From: Gammaproteobacteria bacterium
GTDB taxonomy: Bacteria > Pseudomonadota > Gammaproteobacteria > GCA-001735895
Length of the DNA: 10,595 bases
Assembly: GCA_050298595.1 (NCBI GenBank)
Contig: JBNKUM010000031.1
Span: 1-10,595 of the forward strand
Direction: 5' to 3'
Shown: piece by piece, positions 321 to 10,595 of the stretch
How positions within the stretch are numbered: the first letter of the stretch is position 1
Layout of the letters: each line of letters opens with the position of its first letter
The notes under the pieces: generated by a model
The model's input: only the letters and a program-made list of their open reading frames with translations
Told to the model about the DNA's origin: nothing
The model's database searches: none
Made by a program: the position numbers and the translations under genes

Positions 321-1439
321 ATGCAACTATCCAACGAAGACAACCTGCGATTAAACGTGCTGCTGGCTCAGGATCTTAAAGCCGTGCGCATTGATGAATC
401 AAAAATGATTGTCTATGCATTGACTGCAAAAGGCGATGTCAAGGTTCAGCTGAACCCCACCTGCAAGGATGAAAAGTACATCAAGATCGTGAAGGAATTG
501 CTATCCAGCAAGATTATGGGCTCACCCGGTGGATATCCAGTTTACATCAAACGCTGGACACGCATGGGTCAGGAACGCCGTGAAGAGAGTCTTGCACAAT
601 TACTCCTGCTCGGTGAACCTGAAGCCGTAGTGGCGGTGGTGCATGCGCCCAACCTGTCACCAGAGATTGCCCAGCATGCCTGGTGGGCTTATCCATCAGC
701 GGATAATGCTCGACGCTTGCTGGAAAAAAAAGAGATAGCGGAGTCAACTCTGGCACGAGAACTGGCCGAATTTCTGCTGGAGTTTCTGCCATTTGAGGTG
801 GAACACCGGGATATGATTGACTCGGTACGACTCTGCCTGCAGCCGCAGTTATTCAAACCCGAAGAGGTAGAAGATTTATGGAAGCGGGCAAAACGTAAGC
901 AAAGCCTGTATGTCGGGTTTTTACATAGCATGCCGGATGATTTGCCTGAAACAGTACCCGAGCATGTCAGATATGCTGAGTTACTCGCTACGCTAAATCC
1001 GCTCATCGAAGTGGGCAATGCTTACGCATTACAGCTTAAGCGTTACTACAGCGCCGCAGGACAGGCTTTTCTCAAAACCGTAAACCAGGTTATCGACAAA
1101 GCGGCGAGTCAGGAAACAATTGTTTCAATGTTCCATGCTATTAGCGCTTATCATGCTGAATTACCATTATCGGCAATCAAGCAACGAGATTTTTCAGAAG
1201 CAGAAACAATGGCCAATAACTGTTTAATTGAAAGCAGCGATGAGCAATTACAGGCCTGTATTAGGTTGGCTGGGCAATATCAGGATCAAATCCGAGCTAT
1301 GCTGATACTCGCGCAGATGGGCGAAGTGACACTCAACCCGATTTTTGGAGTTTCTGATGCATTGGGTTCGGTGATGCGTAAAAAATTAAAACCGCTAACA
1401 GACCCTTTGCAGGGTCAAATCAACATTCTGTTATCGTAA
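321..1439 (+). CDS. dsrS: DsrS, accessory protein of the reverse-Dsr sulfur oxidation system
   Basis: 372 aa. The N-terminus LSNEDNLRLNVLL..AVRIDES.M.VY.L, the motif GSPGGYPVYIKRWTRMGQ..ESL.QLLLLGEPEAVVAV, AWWA....NARR.L and the C-terminal DALGSVMRKKLKP match DsrS of Allochromatium-type sulfur oxidisers as I recall it. Confidence 0.85.
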   Translation: MQLSNEDNLRLNVLLAQDLKAVRIDESKMIVYALTAKGDVKVQLNPTCKDEKYIKIVKELLSSKIMGSPGGYPVYIKRWTRMGQERREESLAQLLLLGEPEAVVAVVHAPNLSPEIAQHAWWAYPSADNARRLLEKKEIAESTLARELAEFLLEFLPFEVEHRDMIDSVRLCLQPQLFKPEEVEDLWKRAKRKQSLYVGFLHSMPDDLPETVPEHVRYAELLATLNPLIEVGNAYALQLKRYYSAAGQAFLKTVNQVIDKAASQETIVSMFHAISAYHAELPLSAIKQRDFSEAETMANNCLIESSDEQLQACIRLAGQYQDQIRAMLILAQMGEVTLNPIFGVSDALGSVMRKKLKPLTDPLQGQINILLS

Positions 1440-1447
1440 CATTTGGA

Positions 1448-1476
1448 GCTCCAGCAATACCCGTTGGAGTTTTATT
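1448..1476 (+). terminator. Probable rho-independent terminator after dsrS
   Basis: Stem GCTCCAGC (1448-1455) / GTTGGAGT (1463-1470) with two G-T pairs and a 7-nt loop, followed by TTTATT. Starts 8 nt after the dsrS stop. Confidence 0.55.
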
Positions 1477-1504
1477 GGTTGTTATAGTAAAGATTCTCTA
1501 TAAT
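1475..1504 (+). promoter_or_regulatory. Possible sigma70 promoter for cysG
   Basis: Perfect TATAAT at 1499-1504, 32 nt before the ATG. Only a weak -35 (TTGGTT 1475-1480, 18-nt spacer). Confidence 0.3.
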
Positions 1505-1536
1505 GAATCGCTTATATAGAGGCAGTAGACCCGTAC

Positions 1537-2937
1537 ATGAATTATCTTCCTATCTTTTTTAATATTCGCGATAAACTCTGCATTGTTGTTGGTGCTGGCG
1601 GTATTGCTGCTCGTAAGGCCGATCTACTCTACTCTGCAGGTGCACTGGTAACCGTCATCTCACCCGAGCTTGGGCAGGAGATGTCGCAATTTCACAAGGA
1701 ATCTAAAATTCAATGGATAGAGCGCGAATATCAATCCGGTGATTTGAAAGACGCGCATCTGGTGGTGGCTTCGACAGATAATGAAAGCGTTAACCGACGC
1801 GTCGCCGAAGAAGCCGAGGCACTCAAAATTCCCTGCAATGTGGTCGATCATGCTGATCTGGGCAGTTATATCATGCCTTCTATTATCAATCGCGACCCGG
1901 TACAGATCGCGGTTTCGACTGGCGGAGCATCTCCGGTACTGGCGCGCCTTATACGAACCAATCTTGAAAGTTGCACGCCATCTGCCTATGGCAAACTTGC
2001 AAAGTTGGTGGAGTCTTACCGTGAATCAGTAAAACAGACATTTCCACGGGTAGAAGAGCGTCGCAAGTTCTGGGAATCGATTCTTGAAGGCCCGGTATCA
2101 GAGCATGTGTTTGCCGGTCGCAATGATGATGCGCGCCAGTTGCTTGAAAAGCTGATCGCAGAGGCCAGTTCAGACCCCAGTTATACCGGCGAGGTATTTC
2201 TGGTCGGTGCGGGACCGGGTGACCCTGATCTACTGACTTTTCGTGCCTTGCGCCTGATGCAAAAGGCAGATGTGATTGTATATGACCGACTGGTCTCTGG
2301 CCCTATTATGGATCTGGTACGGCGCGATGCAGAGCGCATTTATGCAGGTAAAGAACGTTCAAACCACGCCATTCCACAGGAAAATATCAACCAGCTACTG
2401 GTTCGCCTGGCCAAACAAGGAAAGCGGGTATTACGCCTGAAAGGGGGGGATAACTTCATCTTCGGACGTGGTGGTGAAGAGATATCAGAATTGATCGATG
2501 AGGGCGTACCGTTTCAGGTAGTACCGGGTATCACGGCAGCCTCGGGTTGTACCACCTATGCAGGCATCCCGCTAACACATCGAGACTTCGCTCAGGCCTG
2601 TATCTTTGTGACCGGACACCTCAAAGATGGTAGCAGTGATTTGAACTGGGATATGTTGTCGCATGCCAACCAGACGGTCGTTTTCTATATGGGCCTGAAT
2701 AATGTGCAGGCGATCTGTGAAAACCTGAAGCAGCATGGACGAGATGAAGGCACTCCCGCAGCCCTGATCGAAAAAGGTACCACACCTGATCAACGTGTTT
2801 TCATTGGTGACCTGAATACCTTACCAGCACTGGTACAGCAAAATGATGTAAAAGCACCAACCCTGATTGTGGTCGGAGAAGTCGTTGAGCTACATAAAAA
2901 GCTGCACTGGTTTAAACCGGGTGAAGAAATCAAGTAA
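1537..2937 (+). CDS. cysG: Multifunctional siroheme synthase (precorrin-2 dehydrogenase/ferrochelatase plus uroporphyrinogen-III C-methyltransferase)
   Basis: 466 aa. N-terminal MNYLPIF and NAD-binding VVGAGGIAARK, CNVVD, AVSTGGASPVLAR, RRKFWE. Methyltransferase motifs LVGAGPGDPDLLT, YDRLVS, RLKGGDxFIFGRGGEE, VVPGITAA, YAGIPLTHR. GAGG RBS-like sequence upstream. Confidence 0.96.
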   Translation: MNYLPIFFNIRDKLCIVVGAGGIAARKADLLYSAGALVTVISPELGQEMSQFHKESKIQWIEREYQSGDLKDAHLVVASTDNESVNRRVAEEAEALKIPCNVVDHADLGSYIMPSIINRDPVQIAVSTGGASPVLARLIRTNLESCTPSAYGKLAKLVESYRESVKQTFPRVEERRKFWESILEGPVSEHVFAGRNDDARQLLEKLIAEASSDPSYTGEVFLVGAGPGDPDLLTFRALRLMQKADVIVYDRLVSGPIMDLVRRDAERIYAGKERSNHAIPQENINQLLVRLAKQGKRVLRLKGGDNFIFGRGGEEISELIDEGVPFQVVPGITAASGCTTYAGIPLTHRDFAQACIFVTGHLKDGSSDLNWDMLSHANQTVVFYMGLNNVQAICENLKQHGRDEGTPAALIEKGTTPDQRVFIGDLNTLPALVQQNDVKAPTLIVVGEVVELHKKLHWFKPGEEIK

Positions 2938-3047
2938 AGATCTGTGGCTGTTATGTTTTTTTGATCGTATTTTAATAATTCCTGCACTATAACTGACCCT
3001 ATCTGAGTTATGATGTGACACAAGATTTCAATCAAATCTATGAGCGC

Positions 3048-3602
3048 ATGCTAACTAGATACCTGAAACGATTAAAAGGGCAGGGTATTAAAAGCCCTCC
3101 CATTCATCCCTTTAGCTGGATGCTGTGGTCATGGCTTGGTGCTTTTGCAGGCATTCTGGGAGCCGCCCTGATCAATCGCTTTCTACCGCTAACCCCTTAT
3201 GATCAGGTACTCCTTATTGGGTCATTTGGAGCATCTGCTGTCCTCATCTATGGAACACCTCATGCTTTTTATGCGCAACCCAGAAACCTGATTGGCGGTC
3301 ATCTAATCGCAGCAGTAGTGGGTGTTTGGGTGACGCAAACTCTGGATTTTTCCATAGAGGTTCAAGGCGCAATATCCGTAGCCACAGCAATATTTTTCAT
3401 GCATCTCACTAAAACCCTGCATCCACCAGGCGGGGCAACCGCATTGATCGCTGTCGTTGGTAGTGACAGTATCCAGCAACTGGGTTACTGGTACGTACTC
3501 CAACCGGTAATGTCTGGAGTTTTTATGATGTTGCTGGTTGCACTACTAATTAATAACCTGTCATCTAATCCTGAGCGACATTATCCCAGATACTGGCTGT
3601 AG
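3048..3602 (+). CDS. HPP family integral membrane protein
   Basis: Motifs IGSFGASAVLIYG.P...AQPRNLIGGH and TKTLHPPGGATAL with 4-5 hydrophobic helices. ATG 3048 preferred because homologues begin near Y..R.KG; GTG 3015 is the alternative start. Confidence 0.92.
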   Translation: MLTRYLKRLKGQGIKSPPIHPFSWMLWSWLGAFAGILGAALINRFLPLTPYDQVLLIGSFGASAVLIYGTPHAFYAQPRNLIGGHLIAAVVGVWVTQTLDFSIEVQGAISVATAIFFMHLTKTLHPPGGATALIAVVGSDSIQQLGYWYVLQPVMSGVFMMLLVALLINNLSSNPERHYPRYWL

Positions 3603-3731
3603 AGATACTTCAATTCAAGACCAATGAAAAAACTGGACTATTGATTGAACCAGGATTCCGCACAGCAATAGATTCAACCAGAACCATTGGTCTATAATTG
3701 TGTGCATTGGATCTGTTAGGTAGAGACATTT

Positions 3732-4703
3732 ATGTTTTGTGCTAGAAGAAAGATGGGATTGCTAAACTTGAGCAGTTTTTTATTCTTATTTTTAGGCACT
3801 GGCAATGTATCTTCCGATACTGCCAAAGTGCTTTTTATCAATTCCTATCATCCGGGTTATGAGTGGAGTGATGGTGTCGAGGAAGGGCTCGAGGATGAAC
3901 TTGCAGGACATGCAGTGCAATTACAAAAATTCTACATGGATAGCAAGCGCAAACGCTCTGCCGAAGAGATCTCGGCTGCTGCCAGAGCTGCGCGGGAATT
4001 GATCCAGTCAACCCAGCCGGATGTTGTGATCACCTCCGATGATAATGCGGCTAAGCATGTGATTCAGCGCTATTTCAGGGATTCACTGATTCCCTTCGTA
4101 TTTACCGGGGTCAATTGGGATGCGTCTATCTATGGATTCCCTTCTCGCAATGTGACCGGTATGGAAGAGGTTTCCCTGATTAAGTCAATTGTTAAGCAGC
4201 TGCGCGCCTATGCCAAAGGAGATTCAATTGGTCTGATCTCAATTGATGCAATTTCGGGTAGAAGAAACGCGGAATATTTTGAAAAACAACTGAATCGACG
4301 CTTTGATCAAACCTTCTATGTCAAAAGTTTCGCTGAATGGAAGCAAAAAATTGTTGAGTTGCAGAGCCTGGTCGATATGGTCATTCTCGAAAACCCGAAA
4401 GGAATTAGCGGCTGGGATAATAAAATGGGACTAACTTTTCTGCAGGAAAATACGCGGGTGCCAATAGGAACCACGCATGTCTGGTTGGCGCCATATGCTT
4501 TACTAACAATCGCCAAAATTCCGCAAGAGCAGGGACGTTGGGCTGCACGAACCGTACAACGAATCCTGCAAGGTACTAAACCCGGCGATATTCCTATTGT
4601 GCAAAATAAGGAAGGGAGGTTGTATATTAATTTGAATATAGGGCAAAGGCTGGGGGTGATTTTTACACCGGAACTGATTAAAACAGCCACCATAATTCGC
4701 TAA
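3732..4703 (+). CDS. Periplasmic ABC-type substrate-binding-fold protein (ABC_sub_bind-like), probable accessory sensor
   Basis: 323 aa with a signal-peptide-like N-terminus. Motifs KVLFINSYHPGYEWSDG, YMDSKR, PDVVITSDDNA, PFVFTGVN, NVTGMEE, EQGRWAA..V.RIL.G..P..IPI. No permease or ATPase gene adjacent. Confidence 0.8.
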   Translation: MFCARRKMGLLNLSSFLFLFLGTGNVSSDTAKVLFINSYHPGYEWSDGVEEGLEDELAGHAVQLQKFYMDSKRKRSAEEISAAARAARELIQSTQPDVVITSDDNAAKHVIQRYFRDSLIPFVFTGVNWDASIYGFPSRNVTGMEEVSLIKSIVKQLRAYAKGDSIGLISIDAISGRRNAEYFEKQLNRRFDQTFYVKSFAEWKQKIVELQSLVDMVILENPKGISGWDNKMGLTFLQENTRVPIGTTHVWLAPYALLTIAKIPQEQGRWAARTVQRILQGTKPGDIPIVQNKEGRLYINLNIGQRLGVIFTPELIKTATIIR

Positions 4704-4738
4704 TTGAAGGAACTACATTAAAAACCATACACAAGGCT

Positions 4739-6688
4739 ATGAAAATACAGACAAAATTTAGTCTATATCAGGCGATCATTCTGGCGCTGATGGGAAGTGC
4801 ACTGGTATTCAACGGTTACTGGATGATCAGTCGAATTATTTTTCAACAGTACGAACAAAAACTGGAGCATAAACTGGAAGATGTCATTACTGAAGTTAAA
4901 GATGCCTACAGCACGCTGGAGAAAGCCGGTATCCTCGATCTCAGCGCTTATGTTGAAGCGACACAAATACGTCTGATTGACAGCATCAGGAATCAACAAT
5001 TTGGTGATACAGGATTTGTTCAGGTTTTTGATGCTGATGGACATCTGATAACTGCATCCGAGCATTCAGGCGCAGACCAGATTCCAGTAAAACAGATTTT
5101 GATGCAAACCTCGGGGAAACTCGAATACACTCTGGATGGCAGGGATTATTTCGCCCTGTATGCACCAGCAGGTCATTGGGAATGGACCATATTTATTTCC
5201 ATAGCCGAGCAGGAAATGTTCACCAGTCGCAATGAGTTTCTTTCCTATGTGTCGCTGATAGCGGTGATCATCTTTATTTTACTACTTGGATTAACCCGTT
5301 GGCTTTCTTCTAGCACTTCTCGTCGTATTAACTTCACGCTAGATACTTTGAAGTTGATGCAGGAGGGAGACTACTCTCAGCGCTTTCAAGGTAACCTGCA
5401 CGATGAAATTGGACGAATTGAACAGGGCATCAACAACCTGATCAGTAAAATTGATGAAGAGATTTCACAGCGAAAACAAATTGAGATGAACCTGCTCGAG
5501 GCTAAAAACAGGGCTGAAATCAATAACAGGATCAAAACCAAATTCCTGTCAGCCATGAGTCATGAGATTCGAACCCCAATGAACGGAGTTATCGGAATGG
5601 TCAGTTTACTTCGTGACACAGAGCTGGATGATGAACAAAGATATTATCTTGAGGTGGTTGAGCAGTCATCAAATACAATGATGCATGTCATCAACGATAT
5701 TCTGGATTTTTCACGTCTTGAATCAGGCGAGTTAAAGCTGAATAGAACCGAGTTTAGTCTTTTTGATCTAGCTAACGAACAGATAAATCTGTTCTCAATC
5801 AACGCCGAGAATAAAAACATCGAGCTAATTGCAGATTTCAATTTCAACCGAGAAGTTGTTTTACTTGGAGACGTAAAACGCATTCGTCAGATTCTCAGCA
5901 ACCTGATCAGTAATGCATTCAAATTTACCGAACAGGGTAGTATCACCTTGGGTATAGTCGTATCAAGCCCGGATGAGAGTGGTGTTTGCCTGGTTCATTT
6001 TGAAGTGGAAGATACCGGTATTGGTGTACCCGAAGATAAACAGTCAGATCTATTTGAGCATTTTGTCCAGGCTGATGCGACAGTCATACGCAAGTACGGA
6101 GGCACCGGGCTTGGGCTGGCGATTAGCAAGAGCCTGGTAGAAGTCATGCAGGGCAAGATCGGGTTGCGCAGTCAGGAAGGTAAAGGAAGTTGTTTCTGGT
6201 TTGATTTACCTTTACCTGTAGTAAAGTTAAGGCCACAACCCAACAGCGAAACGGCTGCGGCAACAACTGACGAAGCCCCGCAGCTAGAGTCAGCAGGAAA
6301 ATCGATCAATATCCTGGTCGCGGAAGATACGCTGCCCAATCAACTGATCATTCGAATAATATTACAAAAGCTTGGCCATCAGGTAGATATCGCGAAAGAC
6401 GGCGTAGAAGCCACTGAAGCAGTACAAAATGGTAGTTACGACATGGTTTTGATGGATATTCAGATGCCGAACATGGATGGCATCACCGCCTGCCGGGAGA
6501 TCAAGCGACTGGGACCACCATACTCAAATATTCCAATAATCGCGATGACGGCCAATGCAACCAGTGACGATCAGAAGTATTGTTTAGATGCCGGTATGGA
6601 GGATTTTATATCCAAGCCACTTTCACTCAACAAGGTACAAGAAAAACTCGCCAGTTGGGAACAGCGTCTGCAAACTGTATATTCGTAA
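4739..6688 (+). CDS. Membrane-bound hybrid sensor histidine kinase (TM-Cache-like-TM-HAMP-HisKA-HATPase-REC)
   Basis: 649 aa with two TM segments. H-box FLSAMSHEIRTPMNGVIG (His275), N-box QILSNLISNAFKFT, G1 DTGIG, F-box LFEHFVQ, G2 GTGLGL. Receiver domain LVAED / LMDIQMP (Asp573) / IIAMTA / FISKP. No HPt domain. Confidence 0.95.
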   Translation: MKIQTKFSLYQAIILALMGSALVFNGYWMISRIIFQQYEQKLEHKLEDVITEVKDAYSTLEKAGILDLSAYVEATQIRLIDSIRNQQFGDTGFVQVFDADGHLITASEHSGADQIPVKQILMQTSGKLEYTLDGRDYFALYAPAGHWEWTIFISIAEQEMFTSRNEFLSYVSLIAVIIFILLLGLTRWLSSSTSRRINFTLDTLKLMQEGDYSQRFQGNLHDEIGRIEQGINNLISKIDEEISQRKQIEMNLLEAKNRAEINNRIKTKFLSAMSHEIRTPMNGVIGMVSLLRDTELDDEQRYYLEVVEQSSNTMMHVINDILDFSRLESGELKLNRTEFSLFDLANEQINLFSINAENKNIELIADFNFNREVVLLGDVKRIRQILSNLISNAFKFTEQGSITLGIVVSSPDESGVCLVHFEVEDTGIGVPEDKQSDLFEHFVQADATVIRKYGGTGLGLAISKSLVEVMQGKIGLRSQEGKGSCFWFDLPLPVVKLRPQPNSETAAATTDEAPQLESAGKSINILVAEDTLPNQLIIRIILQKLGHQVDIAKDGVEATEAVQNGSYDMVLMDIQMPNMDGITACREIKRLGPPYSNIPIIAMTANATSDDQKYCLDAGMEDFISKPLSLNKVQEKLASWEQRLQTVYS

Positions 6689-8747: not shown

Positions 8748-9296
8748 ATGAATGATGAAATCAATTACAGTAATAACCCCTTACATGGTGTAAGTTTAAA
8801 AAGCCTGTTGACTGAAATAGTGGGTTACTATGGTTTTGATATTCTTTTTGCCTATTTACATATTAACTGTTTTAAGACTAATCCTTCGATTGAATCGAGT
8901 TTGACGTTTCTTAAGAAAACAGACTGGGCACGAGAGAAAATTGAAAACTTTTATCTTTATGAATTCAAAAATCTGCCCAGAGCATCTGACGAGCAGTTTG
9001 AATTATCACCCAGAGATCGAATAGTGCCTGATGAGCACAAGCCTGGTGAACCTGCGATATTGAGTCTGGTTGATGCTGAACAATTGCGCGAGAAGCGAGA
9101 GAGGAGGTTGGCAGAGAGGGGTGAGAACTCCAGGTTCCGGTCGGGTCCAGGCATGAATATTAGTGCCAGACGAGATAGGGCATATTCAAAAAAACGCGAA
9201 TTTGATGATACTCGCAAGGATGATAGTAATTCTAAAGGTTCTTTACGTGGATCAAATGTTAGTGATTCGGATCCCTGGGCGAAGTGGAAAAGGTAA
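8748..9296 (+). CDS. VF530 family (DUF2132) paralogue with C-terminal extension and Arg/Ser/Asp-rich tail
   Basis: [12 protein letters not shown].....YGF..L.....[29 protein letters not shown], then about 110 additional aa. ATG 8748 is preceded by AGGCAGG. Confidence 0.88.
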
Positions 9297-9459
9297 TTGG
9301 AGTTTGATGAATAAGGAGCTTTCTTCAGGGTAAAGCATGCAGTTATTTTGTCATTGCTTGCACAAGTTCGGATGACATCTGGCAGTTTCAAAAAGTAGTT
9401 CTGATTTAGTCTGTGAAAGCAGATATTCGTTTGTGCGGTGCAATAGGCAAGTAGGTGCC

Positions 9460-9629
9460 CAGGCTGTGTGAAAATACGCTTCAAACTGATGACACCAACA
9501 ATATTTTCCACTACGGGGTAATTTTTAGAGAATATTTAGAGTTCAATTAGCACAAATAATACGAAATTGATCCTATATAAGCCCGTATATTCCACTTGAA
9601 AAAATGGACAATGGTTTTCAAACAGACCG
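9460..9629. mobile_element. 170-bp MITE / internally deleted IS remnant (IS1182-like ends) with 4-bp target duplication
   Basis: Left IR CAGGCTGTGTGAAAAT (9460-9475) and right IR GTTTTCAAACAGACCG (9614-9629) match at 12/16. Flanked by direct repeat TGCC (9456-9459 and 9630-9633). AT-rich interior, no transposase. IS family is from recall of GGCTGTGTGAAAAC-type ends. Confidence 0.72.
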
Positions 9630-9670
9630 TGCCAGAAGCGGTCATTGATTAATTTACCTATGAATGAGAA

Positions 9671-9724
9671 TATAATGCAACATAAGTCAATATTTGTGCG
9701 TGTCACATAATGAAGCTGTTAGCT
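9671..9724 (+). other. Possible attI-like site / cassette entry point (G|TTAGCT at 9718)
   Basis: GTTAGCT core begins 28 nt before a cassette-like ORF and is not the end of an attC hairpin. Upstream are TATAAT (9671-9676), ATGCAACATAA (9675-9685) and an imperfect dyad ATTTGTG/CACATAA (9692-9710). Confidence 0.4.
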
Positions 9725-9745
9725 TAAAAAGGAAAGGAGATAGGA

Positions 9746-10087
9746 ATGGGTGCAATTTTCGAGTTGGTTTTAAGTTTCTTAATTGAAACAATAATTTTTA
9801 TTTTTGAAGTCGTAATTTGGAATTATATTCTTTTTTATATTGGTGTTACAGTTTTAAAGATAATTACTTTTTCTAACTATCCAACAGGTATGCAACTTGA
9901 GAAGCATGTAAATGTAATAAGTGGCGCGGGTCTAAATACCATTTATATTTTTTGGGCATGCATAGCCACATACAATTACAATGAAAACATATACTTTTTA
10001 ATTGCTGGTCTTGTTGTAGCAGTAATGCAATCATTGTTAATTGCAATAAAGTATTATTCTCGTGATAGAAATCAATATGGATTTTAG
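9746..10087 (+). CDS. Hypothetical membrane protein (about 4 TM), probable integron cassette gene
   Basis: 113 aa, very hydrophobic. Strong RBS (AAGGAGATAGGA). Visibly more AT-rich than the core genes. Bounded by GTTAG upstream and an attC left half downstream. Confidence 0.78.
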   Translation: MGAIFELVLSFLIETIIFIFEVVIWNYILFYIGVTVLKIITFSNYPTGMQLEKHVNVISGAGLNTIYIFWACIATYNYNENIYFLIAGLVVAVMQSLLIAIKYYSRDRNQYGF

Positions 10088-10108
10088 ATTGTGTTTAAAT
10101 CAAAAAAA

Positions 10109-10152
10109 AAATAACAACTATCTCCACAGGACACAAAAGTGCCGTTGCGCTC
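10109..10152 (+). mobile_element. Left half of an attC site, interrupted at its apex
   Basis: AAATAAC (R''), spacer AACT, ATCTC-C-ACAGG-A (L''-like with expected extrahelical C and A), CACAAAAGTGCCG, then TTGCGCTC, similar to CTACGCTC in the attC at 143-199. The complementary right arm is absent from the window. Confidence 0.65.
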
Positions 10153-10374
10153 GTGAGCGATCTGGGAAAAGGCTGTCTAGAACAGTCATGTGAGTATGAT
10201 GGAGATGAACGAAAGTGAACCCCTGATGCGGTGTCGAAATGGAGAACGTTGCTTGTCAAAACCTGGCTATGAGTGTAAGTCTGGGATAAGTCTTGATGTT
10301 AACTGGAATACAGGCAAGACGGCAGCTGGCATAGAGGGGGCATCAACACCATACATAATCTTTATAGACACCCA
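10153..10374 (+). mobile_element. Group IIB intron ribozyme domain I, RmInt1/class D-like, partial
   Basis: Collinear with RmInt1 domain I as recalled: GTGAGCG, GAyGAACGAAAGTGAACCC, GyGTCG, GTCrAAACC, CTGGGAyAAGTC, GGCrTAGAGGGGGCrT. Internal helices visible: GTATG/CATAC, CCCCT/AGGGG, GTCTTG/CAAGAC, and CCTGGCT/AGTCTGG enclosing the EBS1 loop. Confidence 0.8.
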
Positions 10375-10595
10375 GTGCGCCGAGATAAATCGGCAAAATA
10401 TTGGCGGTGAAAGTCCGCTACCTGGTAAGGATTAGCAATCCGCCAGGACCCCGAGTCATGGGCCGACCTCGTTGGGTGATAGGGAAGGCAACACAGCTTT
10501 ATCGCGTTACAGCGAGTGATAAGGTTGACTCTCCGGAGTCATAGACCTGATGCATGTGCTGATGTCTTTTGTGCGGAACTCGGGAGATCCTGAAG
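10375..10595 (+). mobile_element. Second group IIB intron (class E/F-like), 5' end and domain I, running off the window
   Basis: Canonical 5' GTGCG. Hairpins GCCGA/TCGGC, GCGG-TGAAAGT-CCGC, CCTGG/CCAGG. Motifs CCCCGAGTCATG, GCCGAC...GGAAGGCAACA, GGAAC.CGGGAGATCC. EBS1 TGGGTG (10473-10478) is exactly complementary to the upstream CACCCA (10369-10374). Possible alpha/alpha' pair TAGC (10433-10436) / GTTA (10506-10509). Confidence 0.88.

Follow-up and report, generated by a model that had tools for sequence, protein, structure and literature searches.

Truncated introns lying among other mobile DNA are typical of bacteria, and RmInt1 in ISRm2011-2 is a group II intron whose natural homing site lies in an insertion sequence. 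In a twintron, the sequence of the outer intron resumes after the inner intron, and the outer intron retains splice sites and a domain V of its own (PMC4424553). ORF-less bacterial group II introns are described as rare, and related introns, from which an IEP may be supplied in trans, nearly always occur in the same genome (PMC4424553). IIC-attC introns occupy the bottom strand of attC and are oriented against the transcription of the cassettes (PMC3001079).

The window, that is, the whole stretch of DNA analysed here (10,595 nucleotides), is the entire contig C31 of a gammaproteobacterial draft genome (G000; 119 contigs, 5.49 Mb, 98.6% complete) and ends at 10595 inside a group II intron that starts at 10375. 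This intron is called intron 2 below, and the upstream relic of another group II intron is called intron 1. A reading made from the sequence alone had taken the two for a cross-class nest, in which a class E/F-like intron had entered a class D-like intron itself lodged in attC. As in the twintrons of Trichodesmium, Thermosynechococcus and Methanosarcina acetivorans, two group II introns are adjacent at this locus, and the 5′ junction of the downstream one displays EBS1-IBS1 pairing. Unlike in those twintrons, the supposed outer intron is a 205-base internal relic, a transposon end stands between the two introns, and transposon sequence lies beyond intron 2. The arrangement is very probably a pile-up of mobile elements, made of a relic of intron 1, the tip of a transposon-like element and a defective intron 2, and not a twintron.

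The 5′ junction at 10374/10375 is that of a genuine group II intron, as the sequence-only reading had held, and the positions it gave for the three motifs were correct when read directly. The 5′ exon ends with the IBS1 sequence CACCCA (10369-10374, plus strand), the GUGYG-type intron start GTGCG follows immediately (10375-10379, plus strand), and the EBS1 sequence TGGGTG (10473-10478, plus strand) forms the terminal loop of a domain I hairpin in the Rfam alignment, with six of six possible pairs to the exon in the window itself. For the family, pairing was counted in an alignment of six copies, in which the window row is misaligned by the deletion described below and was set aside as gaps. The five related copies with letters on both sides give standard pairs in 29 of 30 cells, as against 30-50% when the partner is slid by one to three columns. 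Two of the pairs have changed on both sides in a compensatory manner, both of them in the single sequence G001:C2 (CGCCTG with TAGGCG). In every copy found in G000, G001, G011 and G038 the exon preceding GTGCG ends in GACACCCA or a near variant of it. Six EBS1-IBS1 base pairs specify the site of intron 2. A by-eye look for an EBS2/IBS2 partnership, at a hairpin GGCTCAGTATAGAGCTCC that is deleted in the window copy, yielded no pairing consistent across copies.

The window holds the first 221 bases of intron 2 (10375..10595, plus strand), which belong to domain I, contain no ORF and run off the contig end. At gathering thresholds Rfam has no match anywhere in the window. Below them, group-II-D1D4-6 (RF02005) matches 10410-10548 with 44.6 bits (E 5e-11), under the gathering score of 49, while a sister copy on contig C46 matches the whole model with 176.4 bits. 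The window copy falls short of the cut-off because it has lost 83 bases. When it is compared with C46 and four copies from relatives, the domain I segment between two GCCGAC direct repeats is absent, and BLAST offsets against C46 place the sole remaining copy of this six-base repeat at 10462..10467 (plus strand). All five of the other copies reaching that region in the alignment keep the 83 bases, and in the Rfam alignment their loss leaves about 90 model positions unmatched and removes one strand of a long helix. Contigs C8 and C108, with weaker D1D4-6 matches, were considered as further carriers of the same deletion and rejected, being distant sequences and not this variant.

The contig ends in a multi-copy repeat. 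Compared by BLAST with the contigs of G000, the sequence from about 10350 onward recurs on C46, C100, C57, C50, C49 and C28, and nothing upstream of about 10349 recurs in that comparison. The last 134 bases of the window are identical, at 100%, to C46:26147-26280. Such an end is where a de Bruijn assembler might join a unique left flank wrongly to a repeat, and the identity of those 134 bases to another contig would agree with an artefact of this kind. Against it, the 104 bases that follow the join hold features of no other copy, namely a T in AAAATATTGG where AAAAGATTGG is found elsewhere, CACCCA where C46 has CCCCCA, and the 83-base deletion. The path from the unique flank into the window copy is thus its own, and a chimeric join is highly improbable. 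The contig break itself is caused by the repeat that bears intron 2, a point of use in finishing the assembly. Farther upstream, the repeats within 9250-10160 were considered as a possible recurring attC; the segment 10089-10150 has no second copy in G000. The AT-rich stretch at 9358-9739, between the second VF530-domain gene and a small ORF (9746-10087), consists of short repeats that occur at 75-95% identity on more than 20 contigs and have a MITE- or REP-like look.

The 19 bases that precede intron 2 (10356..10374, plus strand; ATAATCTTTATAGACACCCA in the window occupies 10355-10374) are not derived from intron 1. Comparison of repeat ends identifies them as the terminal unit, of the ATAATCTTTATAGACACCCA type, of a repeat of about 1.4 kb that occurs at no fewer than 14 places in G000. 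Uninterrupted copies read ...ATCTTTATAGACACCCA followed at the intron site by GCGATTGAAAAGGAAATTAA, and their ends can be written as the unit followed by CGATTGAAAAGGAAATTAA. On C85 the empty site reads ...ATCTTTATAGACTCATCTTTATAGACACCCA then GCGATTGGAAAGGAAATTAA; that contig agrees with the window exon in 17 of 17 positions for ATCTTTATAGACACCCA, and C57 has ATAATCTTTAAAGACACC. In all, 14 uninterrupted repeat ends in G000 represent the empty site, with the unit joined directly to (N)CGATTGRAAAGGAAATTAA. At these ends short tandem units, one to three in number, terminate in GACACCCA; the match to that sequence is exact at 4 of the 14 ends and off by one to three bases at the others. The units measure 15-19 bases, and three of them are present on C15. 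The same exon end also precedes the intron copies in G001, G011 and G038. The 3′ exon includes the GAAAGGAAATTAA... region, and the recurring sequence starts about 6-15 bases past the intron 3′ end on contigs C14 and C30, running for about 1.4 kb on C30. At both of these occupied sites the start of the 3′ exon has an extra tandem duplication of 11-12 bases (GCGATTACCCA GCGATTAGAAAGG; GTAATTGGATCA GTAATTGAAAAGG), directly after the intron 3′ end on the reverse strand (C14:~67765-67740 and C30:~98289-98265).

On the strand opposite to intron 2 the repeat carries an ORF of 335 amino acids that contains an HYHVVL motif; the frame is intact on C23, and the copies on C30, C15 and C85 are broken. The protein has no match in Pfam and no relative in the PDB. 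It resembles the NCBIfam REP-associated tyrosine transposase (REP_Tyr_transpos) with E 1e-10 and 41.6 bits, under the cut-off of 80. Homologues with 42-53% identity are present in 14 plasmid or chromid records, and the matched stretch is annotated as 'transposase' in 6 of the 12 records listed. A RAYT-like transposase of the HUH/Y1 type is tentatively suggested by these similarities. From the comparison of occupied and empty ends, intron 2 sits in its usual target, the tip of this repeat, antisense to the putative transposase gene. Like RmInt1-type introns, intron 2 has one defined site in a repeated element with a putative transposase gene; occupied sites occur in two species of the genus, and empty sites allow a comparison. 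Unlike them, it lies at the tip of its host element, among short tandem units and antisense to the gene, which would encode a RAYT/IS200-like Y1 transposase, and the intron copies found have no ORF. A further copy of the repeat was noticed on C101, where a fragment of an integron integrase gene (63041-63676; model positions 8-135 of 315) stops six bases before it, and the transposase repeat seems to have truncated an intI gene there.

Upstream of the repeat unit the similarity to intron 1 is confined to 10151..10355 (plus strand), as defined by identity to relatives and by alignments with full-length relatives. The sequence-only reading had carried it to about 10367; it stops at 10355, and the next 19 bases match the repeat end instead. 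The segment amounts to 205 bases, or about 11% of an intron of about 1.85 kb (roughly positions 123-327 of ~1850), and lacks the 5′ splice site, all of domains II-VI and an RT. It is 93% identical to G001:C59 (over 10164-10355, at the start of that contig) and 92% identical to G004:C72; on G001:C59 the remainder of domain I, an RT with a frameshift and domain V follow without a break. Identity of 70-83% is seen to domain I of RT-encoding introns in seven plasmid records from Enterobacter, Serratia, Vibrio and others, three of which were inspected. In the seven relatives with a full 5′ end, conservation extends for another 122-143 bases to the left of the position homologous to 10151 and begins with GTGTG, and the window upstream of 10151 is unrelated to this conserved 5′ part. 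GTGCC at 10139-10143 (plus strand), considered as the start of intron 1, was rejected on this account. Past the homologue of 10355 the relatives read GGCTTTAATACGGGACATGAGAACCTGTCG... and continue with the 3′ part of domain I, ...GAGAACCTGTCG..., the RT ORF and domain V; at that point in the window the repeat unit takes over, followed by intron 2.

The 5′ region of the intron-1 family matches the Rfam D1D4-2 model with 114-125 bits, and the RT of the family is closest to the solved GsI-IIC RT (E 4.6e-44); together these similarities point to class C rather than class D. The relic shares with IIC and IIC-attC introns of the S.ma.I2 lineage that its relatives are RT-encoding introns on Serratia, Enterobacter and Vibrio plasmids with an RT nearest to that of GsI-IIC, and that the copies in G058 follow a long inverted repeat. 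The relic itself has lost the 5′ junction by which an insertion in attC would be recognised, and it lies in the same orientation as the upstream ORF. The flank at 10060-10152 was considered as an original attC-like 5′ exon by comparison with the flank in G004, and was rejected as a chance likeness: of 500 shuffles, 152 did as well as the local alignment, which scored 15. Integron integrase genes above the cut-off number three in G000 (on C89, C75 and C99), and none was found in the window. One side observation concerns G001:C10 (36535-36650), where a copy of the intron-1 type keeps its 5′ part and breaks at the homologue of window position 10212; a unit ATAATCGACATACACCCA / ...ATAATCGACATACACCCAGTAATTGAC resembling the terminal unit of the repeat follows the break. 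Units of this kind may, to judge from these two junctions, land in the intron-1 family more than once.

The sequence-only reading had proposed that the downstream side be inspected for an intron 2 RT ORF, for domains V-VI and for the remainder of intron 1. Beyond its overlap with the window, C46 continues over 26281-26532 and finishes with 141 bases that recur unchanged at the ends of C14 and C30 (reverse strand). We infer from these overlaps that the window would continue through C46 into C14 or C30. The two continuations are alike in kind, and the conclusion is the same whichever of them follows the window. Beyond the overlap, both contigs present first an RT remnant SPFYANIYLHYVLDLWVEQ, next domain V and a domain VI helix that has a bulged A, and finally the intron 3′ end CTACGGCGAC and the repeat end. 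A pattern search of the 98.6%-complete draft finds exactly two such 3′ ends in G000, those on C14 and C30, each then followed by the repeat, and these counts agree with the two full 5′ ends (C31 and C46). Given the draft state of the assembly (119 contigs, 98.6%), a third, unassembled 3′ junction is formally possible. The exons of intron 2 sit on different contigs in G000; in G001:C71 a 432-base mini copy occupies the identical site with both exons on one contig.

Domain V on C14 and C30 is atypical. The domain V model (RF00029) scores 27.6 bits on both contigs, under the cut-off of 40. The AGC triad and the two-base bulge are kept, the apical loop has three bases and is not of the GNRA type, and an A stands opposite the G of the triad. 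In a fold of domain VI, on C14 and C30 outside the window, the bulged A lies 8 bases before the 3′ end. Summed over overlapping pieces, intron 2 measures about 850 bases in the C46 copy and about 770 in the window copy. In place of the expected RT ORF only the short remnant is found in G000, and a longer, broken RT is present in the intron 2 copy G001:C36. Intron 2 is a deletion derivative of an RT-encoding ancestor with a short RT remnant left. GIIM domains occur in G000 only on C13 and C75, and over the longest aligned stretch the RTs of these two contigs are only about 24% identical to the RT fragment kept by a G001 copy of intron 2. Current mobility of intron 2 therefore seems unlikely. 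It resembles ORF-less bacterial introns in having no intact IEP, an RT remnant only and recognisable core domains, and differs from them in general in that the RTs sharing its genome are so distant and its domain V so atypical.

These observations bear directly on the twintron interpretation, which holds that retrohoming placed intron 2 inside domain I of an intron 1 that was complete, the remainder of which lies beyond intron 2 and was left unplaced by the draft assembly. Domain I of an intron-1 type does stand directly upstream, and in this respect the earlier claim of two adjacent group II introns of different lineages stands. The contig also stops inside intron 2, with the downstream side outside the window, bacterial twintrons are reported (PMC4424553; PMC4649490), and a Vibrio plasmid carries what looks like a real twintron whose inner intron is related to intron 1. 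Yet the exon bases at the junction are those of the repeat end, and the outer intron does not continue past the inner 3′ end, as both 3′ ends of intron 2 in the assembly run into the transposase repeat. The remaining ~1.5 kb of intron 1 would be unique and should assemble; in G000, blastn with the 1691-base relative of 93% identity finds only 10164-10355, tblastn with the RT of the family finds only the two unrelated RT genes on C13 and C75, and the Rfam D1D4-2 model has no match. Finally, the first ~122 bases of intron 1, including GTGTG and the 5′ splice site, are missing along with domains II-VI, and an outer intron in this state would be unable to splice even if nested. With exon bases foreign to intron 1, an outer intron devoid of both ends and an unrelated 3′ side, nesting is unsupported, and a true twintron is extremely unlikely. 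The sequence-only reading had itself stated that sequence unrelated to intron 1 after intron 2 would refute it, and such sequence is what follows both 3′ ends of intron 2 in the assembly. Its caveat, that a deletion might have juxtaposed two introns, came close to the truth, with the modification that the exon bases ATAATCTTTATAGACACCCA are those of the repeat.

In the preferred reading of a mobile-element pile-up, the locus comprises three successive parts. The first is the IIC-like domain I fragment at 10151-10355, which is missing both ends and is unable to splice. The second, at 10356-10374, is the outermost unit of the RAYT-like (HUH/Y1) transposase element of about 1.4 kb, whose gene lies on the opposite strand. 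The third, from 10375, is the non-autonomous D1D4-6-type intron 2, inserted in the end of the element as its usual target, and the window copy has lost its 83 domain I bases through a deletion between the GCCGAC repeats. This copy probably no longer splices or moves by itself, to judge from its structure. The few copies of intron 2 are likely to have spread earlier, either through retrohoming helped by an RT acting in trans or by being carried along with the transposon-like element.

Either the element entered an old copy of the intron and a deletion came later, or a deletion alone brought relic and element into contact. A more specific version of the former holds that the repeat, with intron 2 already in it or joining later, transposed into a complete intron 1, of which the first 122 bases and the entire 3′ part were subsequently deleted. 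Such a history falls inside the best explanation and implies the same structure. It is consistent with the sharp switch at 10355/10356 from intron-1 similarity to the element unit, with no filler between, and with the differently placed break followed by a similar unit ATAATCGACATACACCCA in G001:C10, which suggests that repeated landing may occur. On the other hand, no intron-1 sequence is found past the far end of the repeat on C14 or C30, and a single deletion could yield an identical junction. On balance we give this history somewhat less than an even chance. A faint resemblance between the element unit CTTTATAGACA and the sequence after the break in intact intron-1 relatives, CTTTAATACGGGACA, leaves an ectopic, target-like insertion slightly possible.

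Apart from the fuller copies, short 5′ stubs of intron 2 are numerous. They were observed in G000 at C100:80994-81062, C50:1005-1072, C49:~25123-25164 and C28:~66250-66271, and in G001 on C8, C58, C219, C241 and C78. The stubs keep about 25-75 bases of the 5′ end behind a GACACCCA-type exon and then break, several of them near ...GGATTAGCGATCC; the C100 stub resembles the product of an internal deletion that extends into the repeat. Incomplete reverse transcription leaves 3′ ends, not 5′ ends. It is conceivable, if rather unlikely, that the intron 2 family is specialised for the tip of a RAYT/IS200-like single-strand transposon, with EBS1 reading the GACACCCA unit that each element offers in one to three tandem copies, and that ORF-less copies and 5′ stubs spread by riding on the single-stranded intermediates of the transposon, or by being processed together with them, and not by an RT of their own. 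Were this true, intron 2 would be a retroelement parasitising a Y1 transposon, which might explain why the stubs keep the 5′ end.

Several other introns were noticed in the course of these comparisons. A genuine-looking twintron lies at ~1400-5400 of locus L020 from the V. parahaemolyticus plasmid pVPH2 (NZ_KP791968.1 86179-92346, reverse complement). Its inner intron, of the intron-1 family (D1D4-2 at 2890-3007, ltrA at 3391-4638, domain V at 4640-4715), interrupts the RT of the outer intron immediately behind the codons for ...RIVRYADD; D1D4-3 (1485-1654) and a separate domain V (5308-5380) belong to the outer intron. In G000 itself, the region C75:87838-92200 contains an integron integrase gene (87838-88698, minus strand; 374 bits) and, about 1.5 kb from it, an IIC-looking intron that starts with GTGTGCC at ~90220, directly after a GC-rich hairpin. 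A stop interrupts the RT of this intron, which also contains a ~37-base repeat (GCTCCTGCAAAACCTGCATTTCCACCATCC) in two copies and may represent an IIC-attC-type insertion. A third intron type is found at C13:1740-3753 (D1D4-3, 83.5 bits), with an intact RT/maturase ORF of 474 residues and a domain V cut by the contig end. Its RT is the only apparently intact group II RT in G000.

Overall, what had been read as a cross-class bacterial twintron in attC is corrected to the common case of truncated introns among mobile DNA, and to that extent the result adds little beyond annotation. Of modest value is the natural homing site, available in both empty and occupied form and with covarying EBS1/IBS1, of a D1D4-6-type intron at the end of a RAYT-like element.
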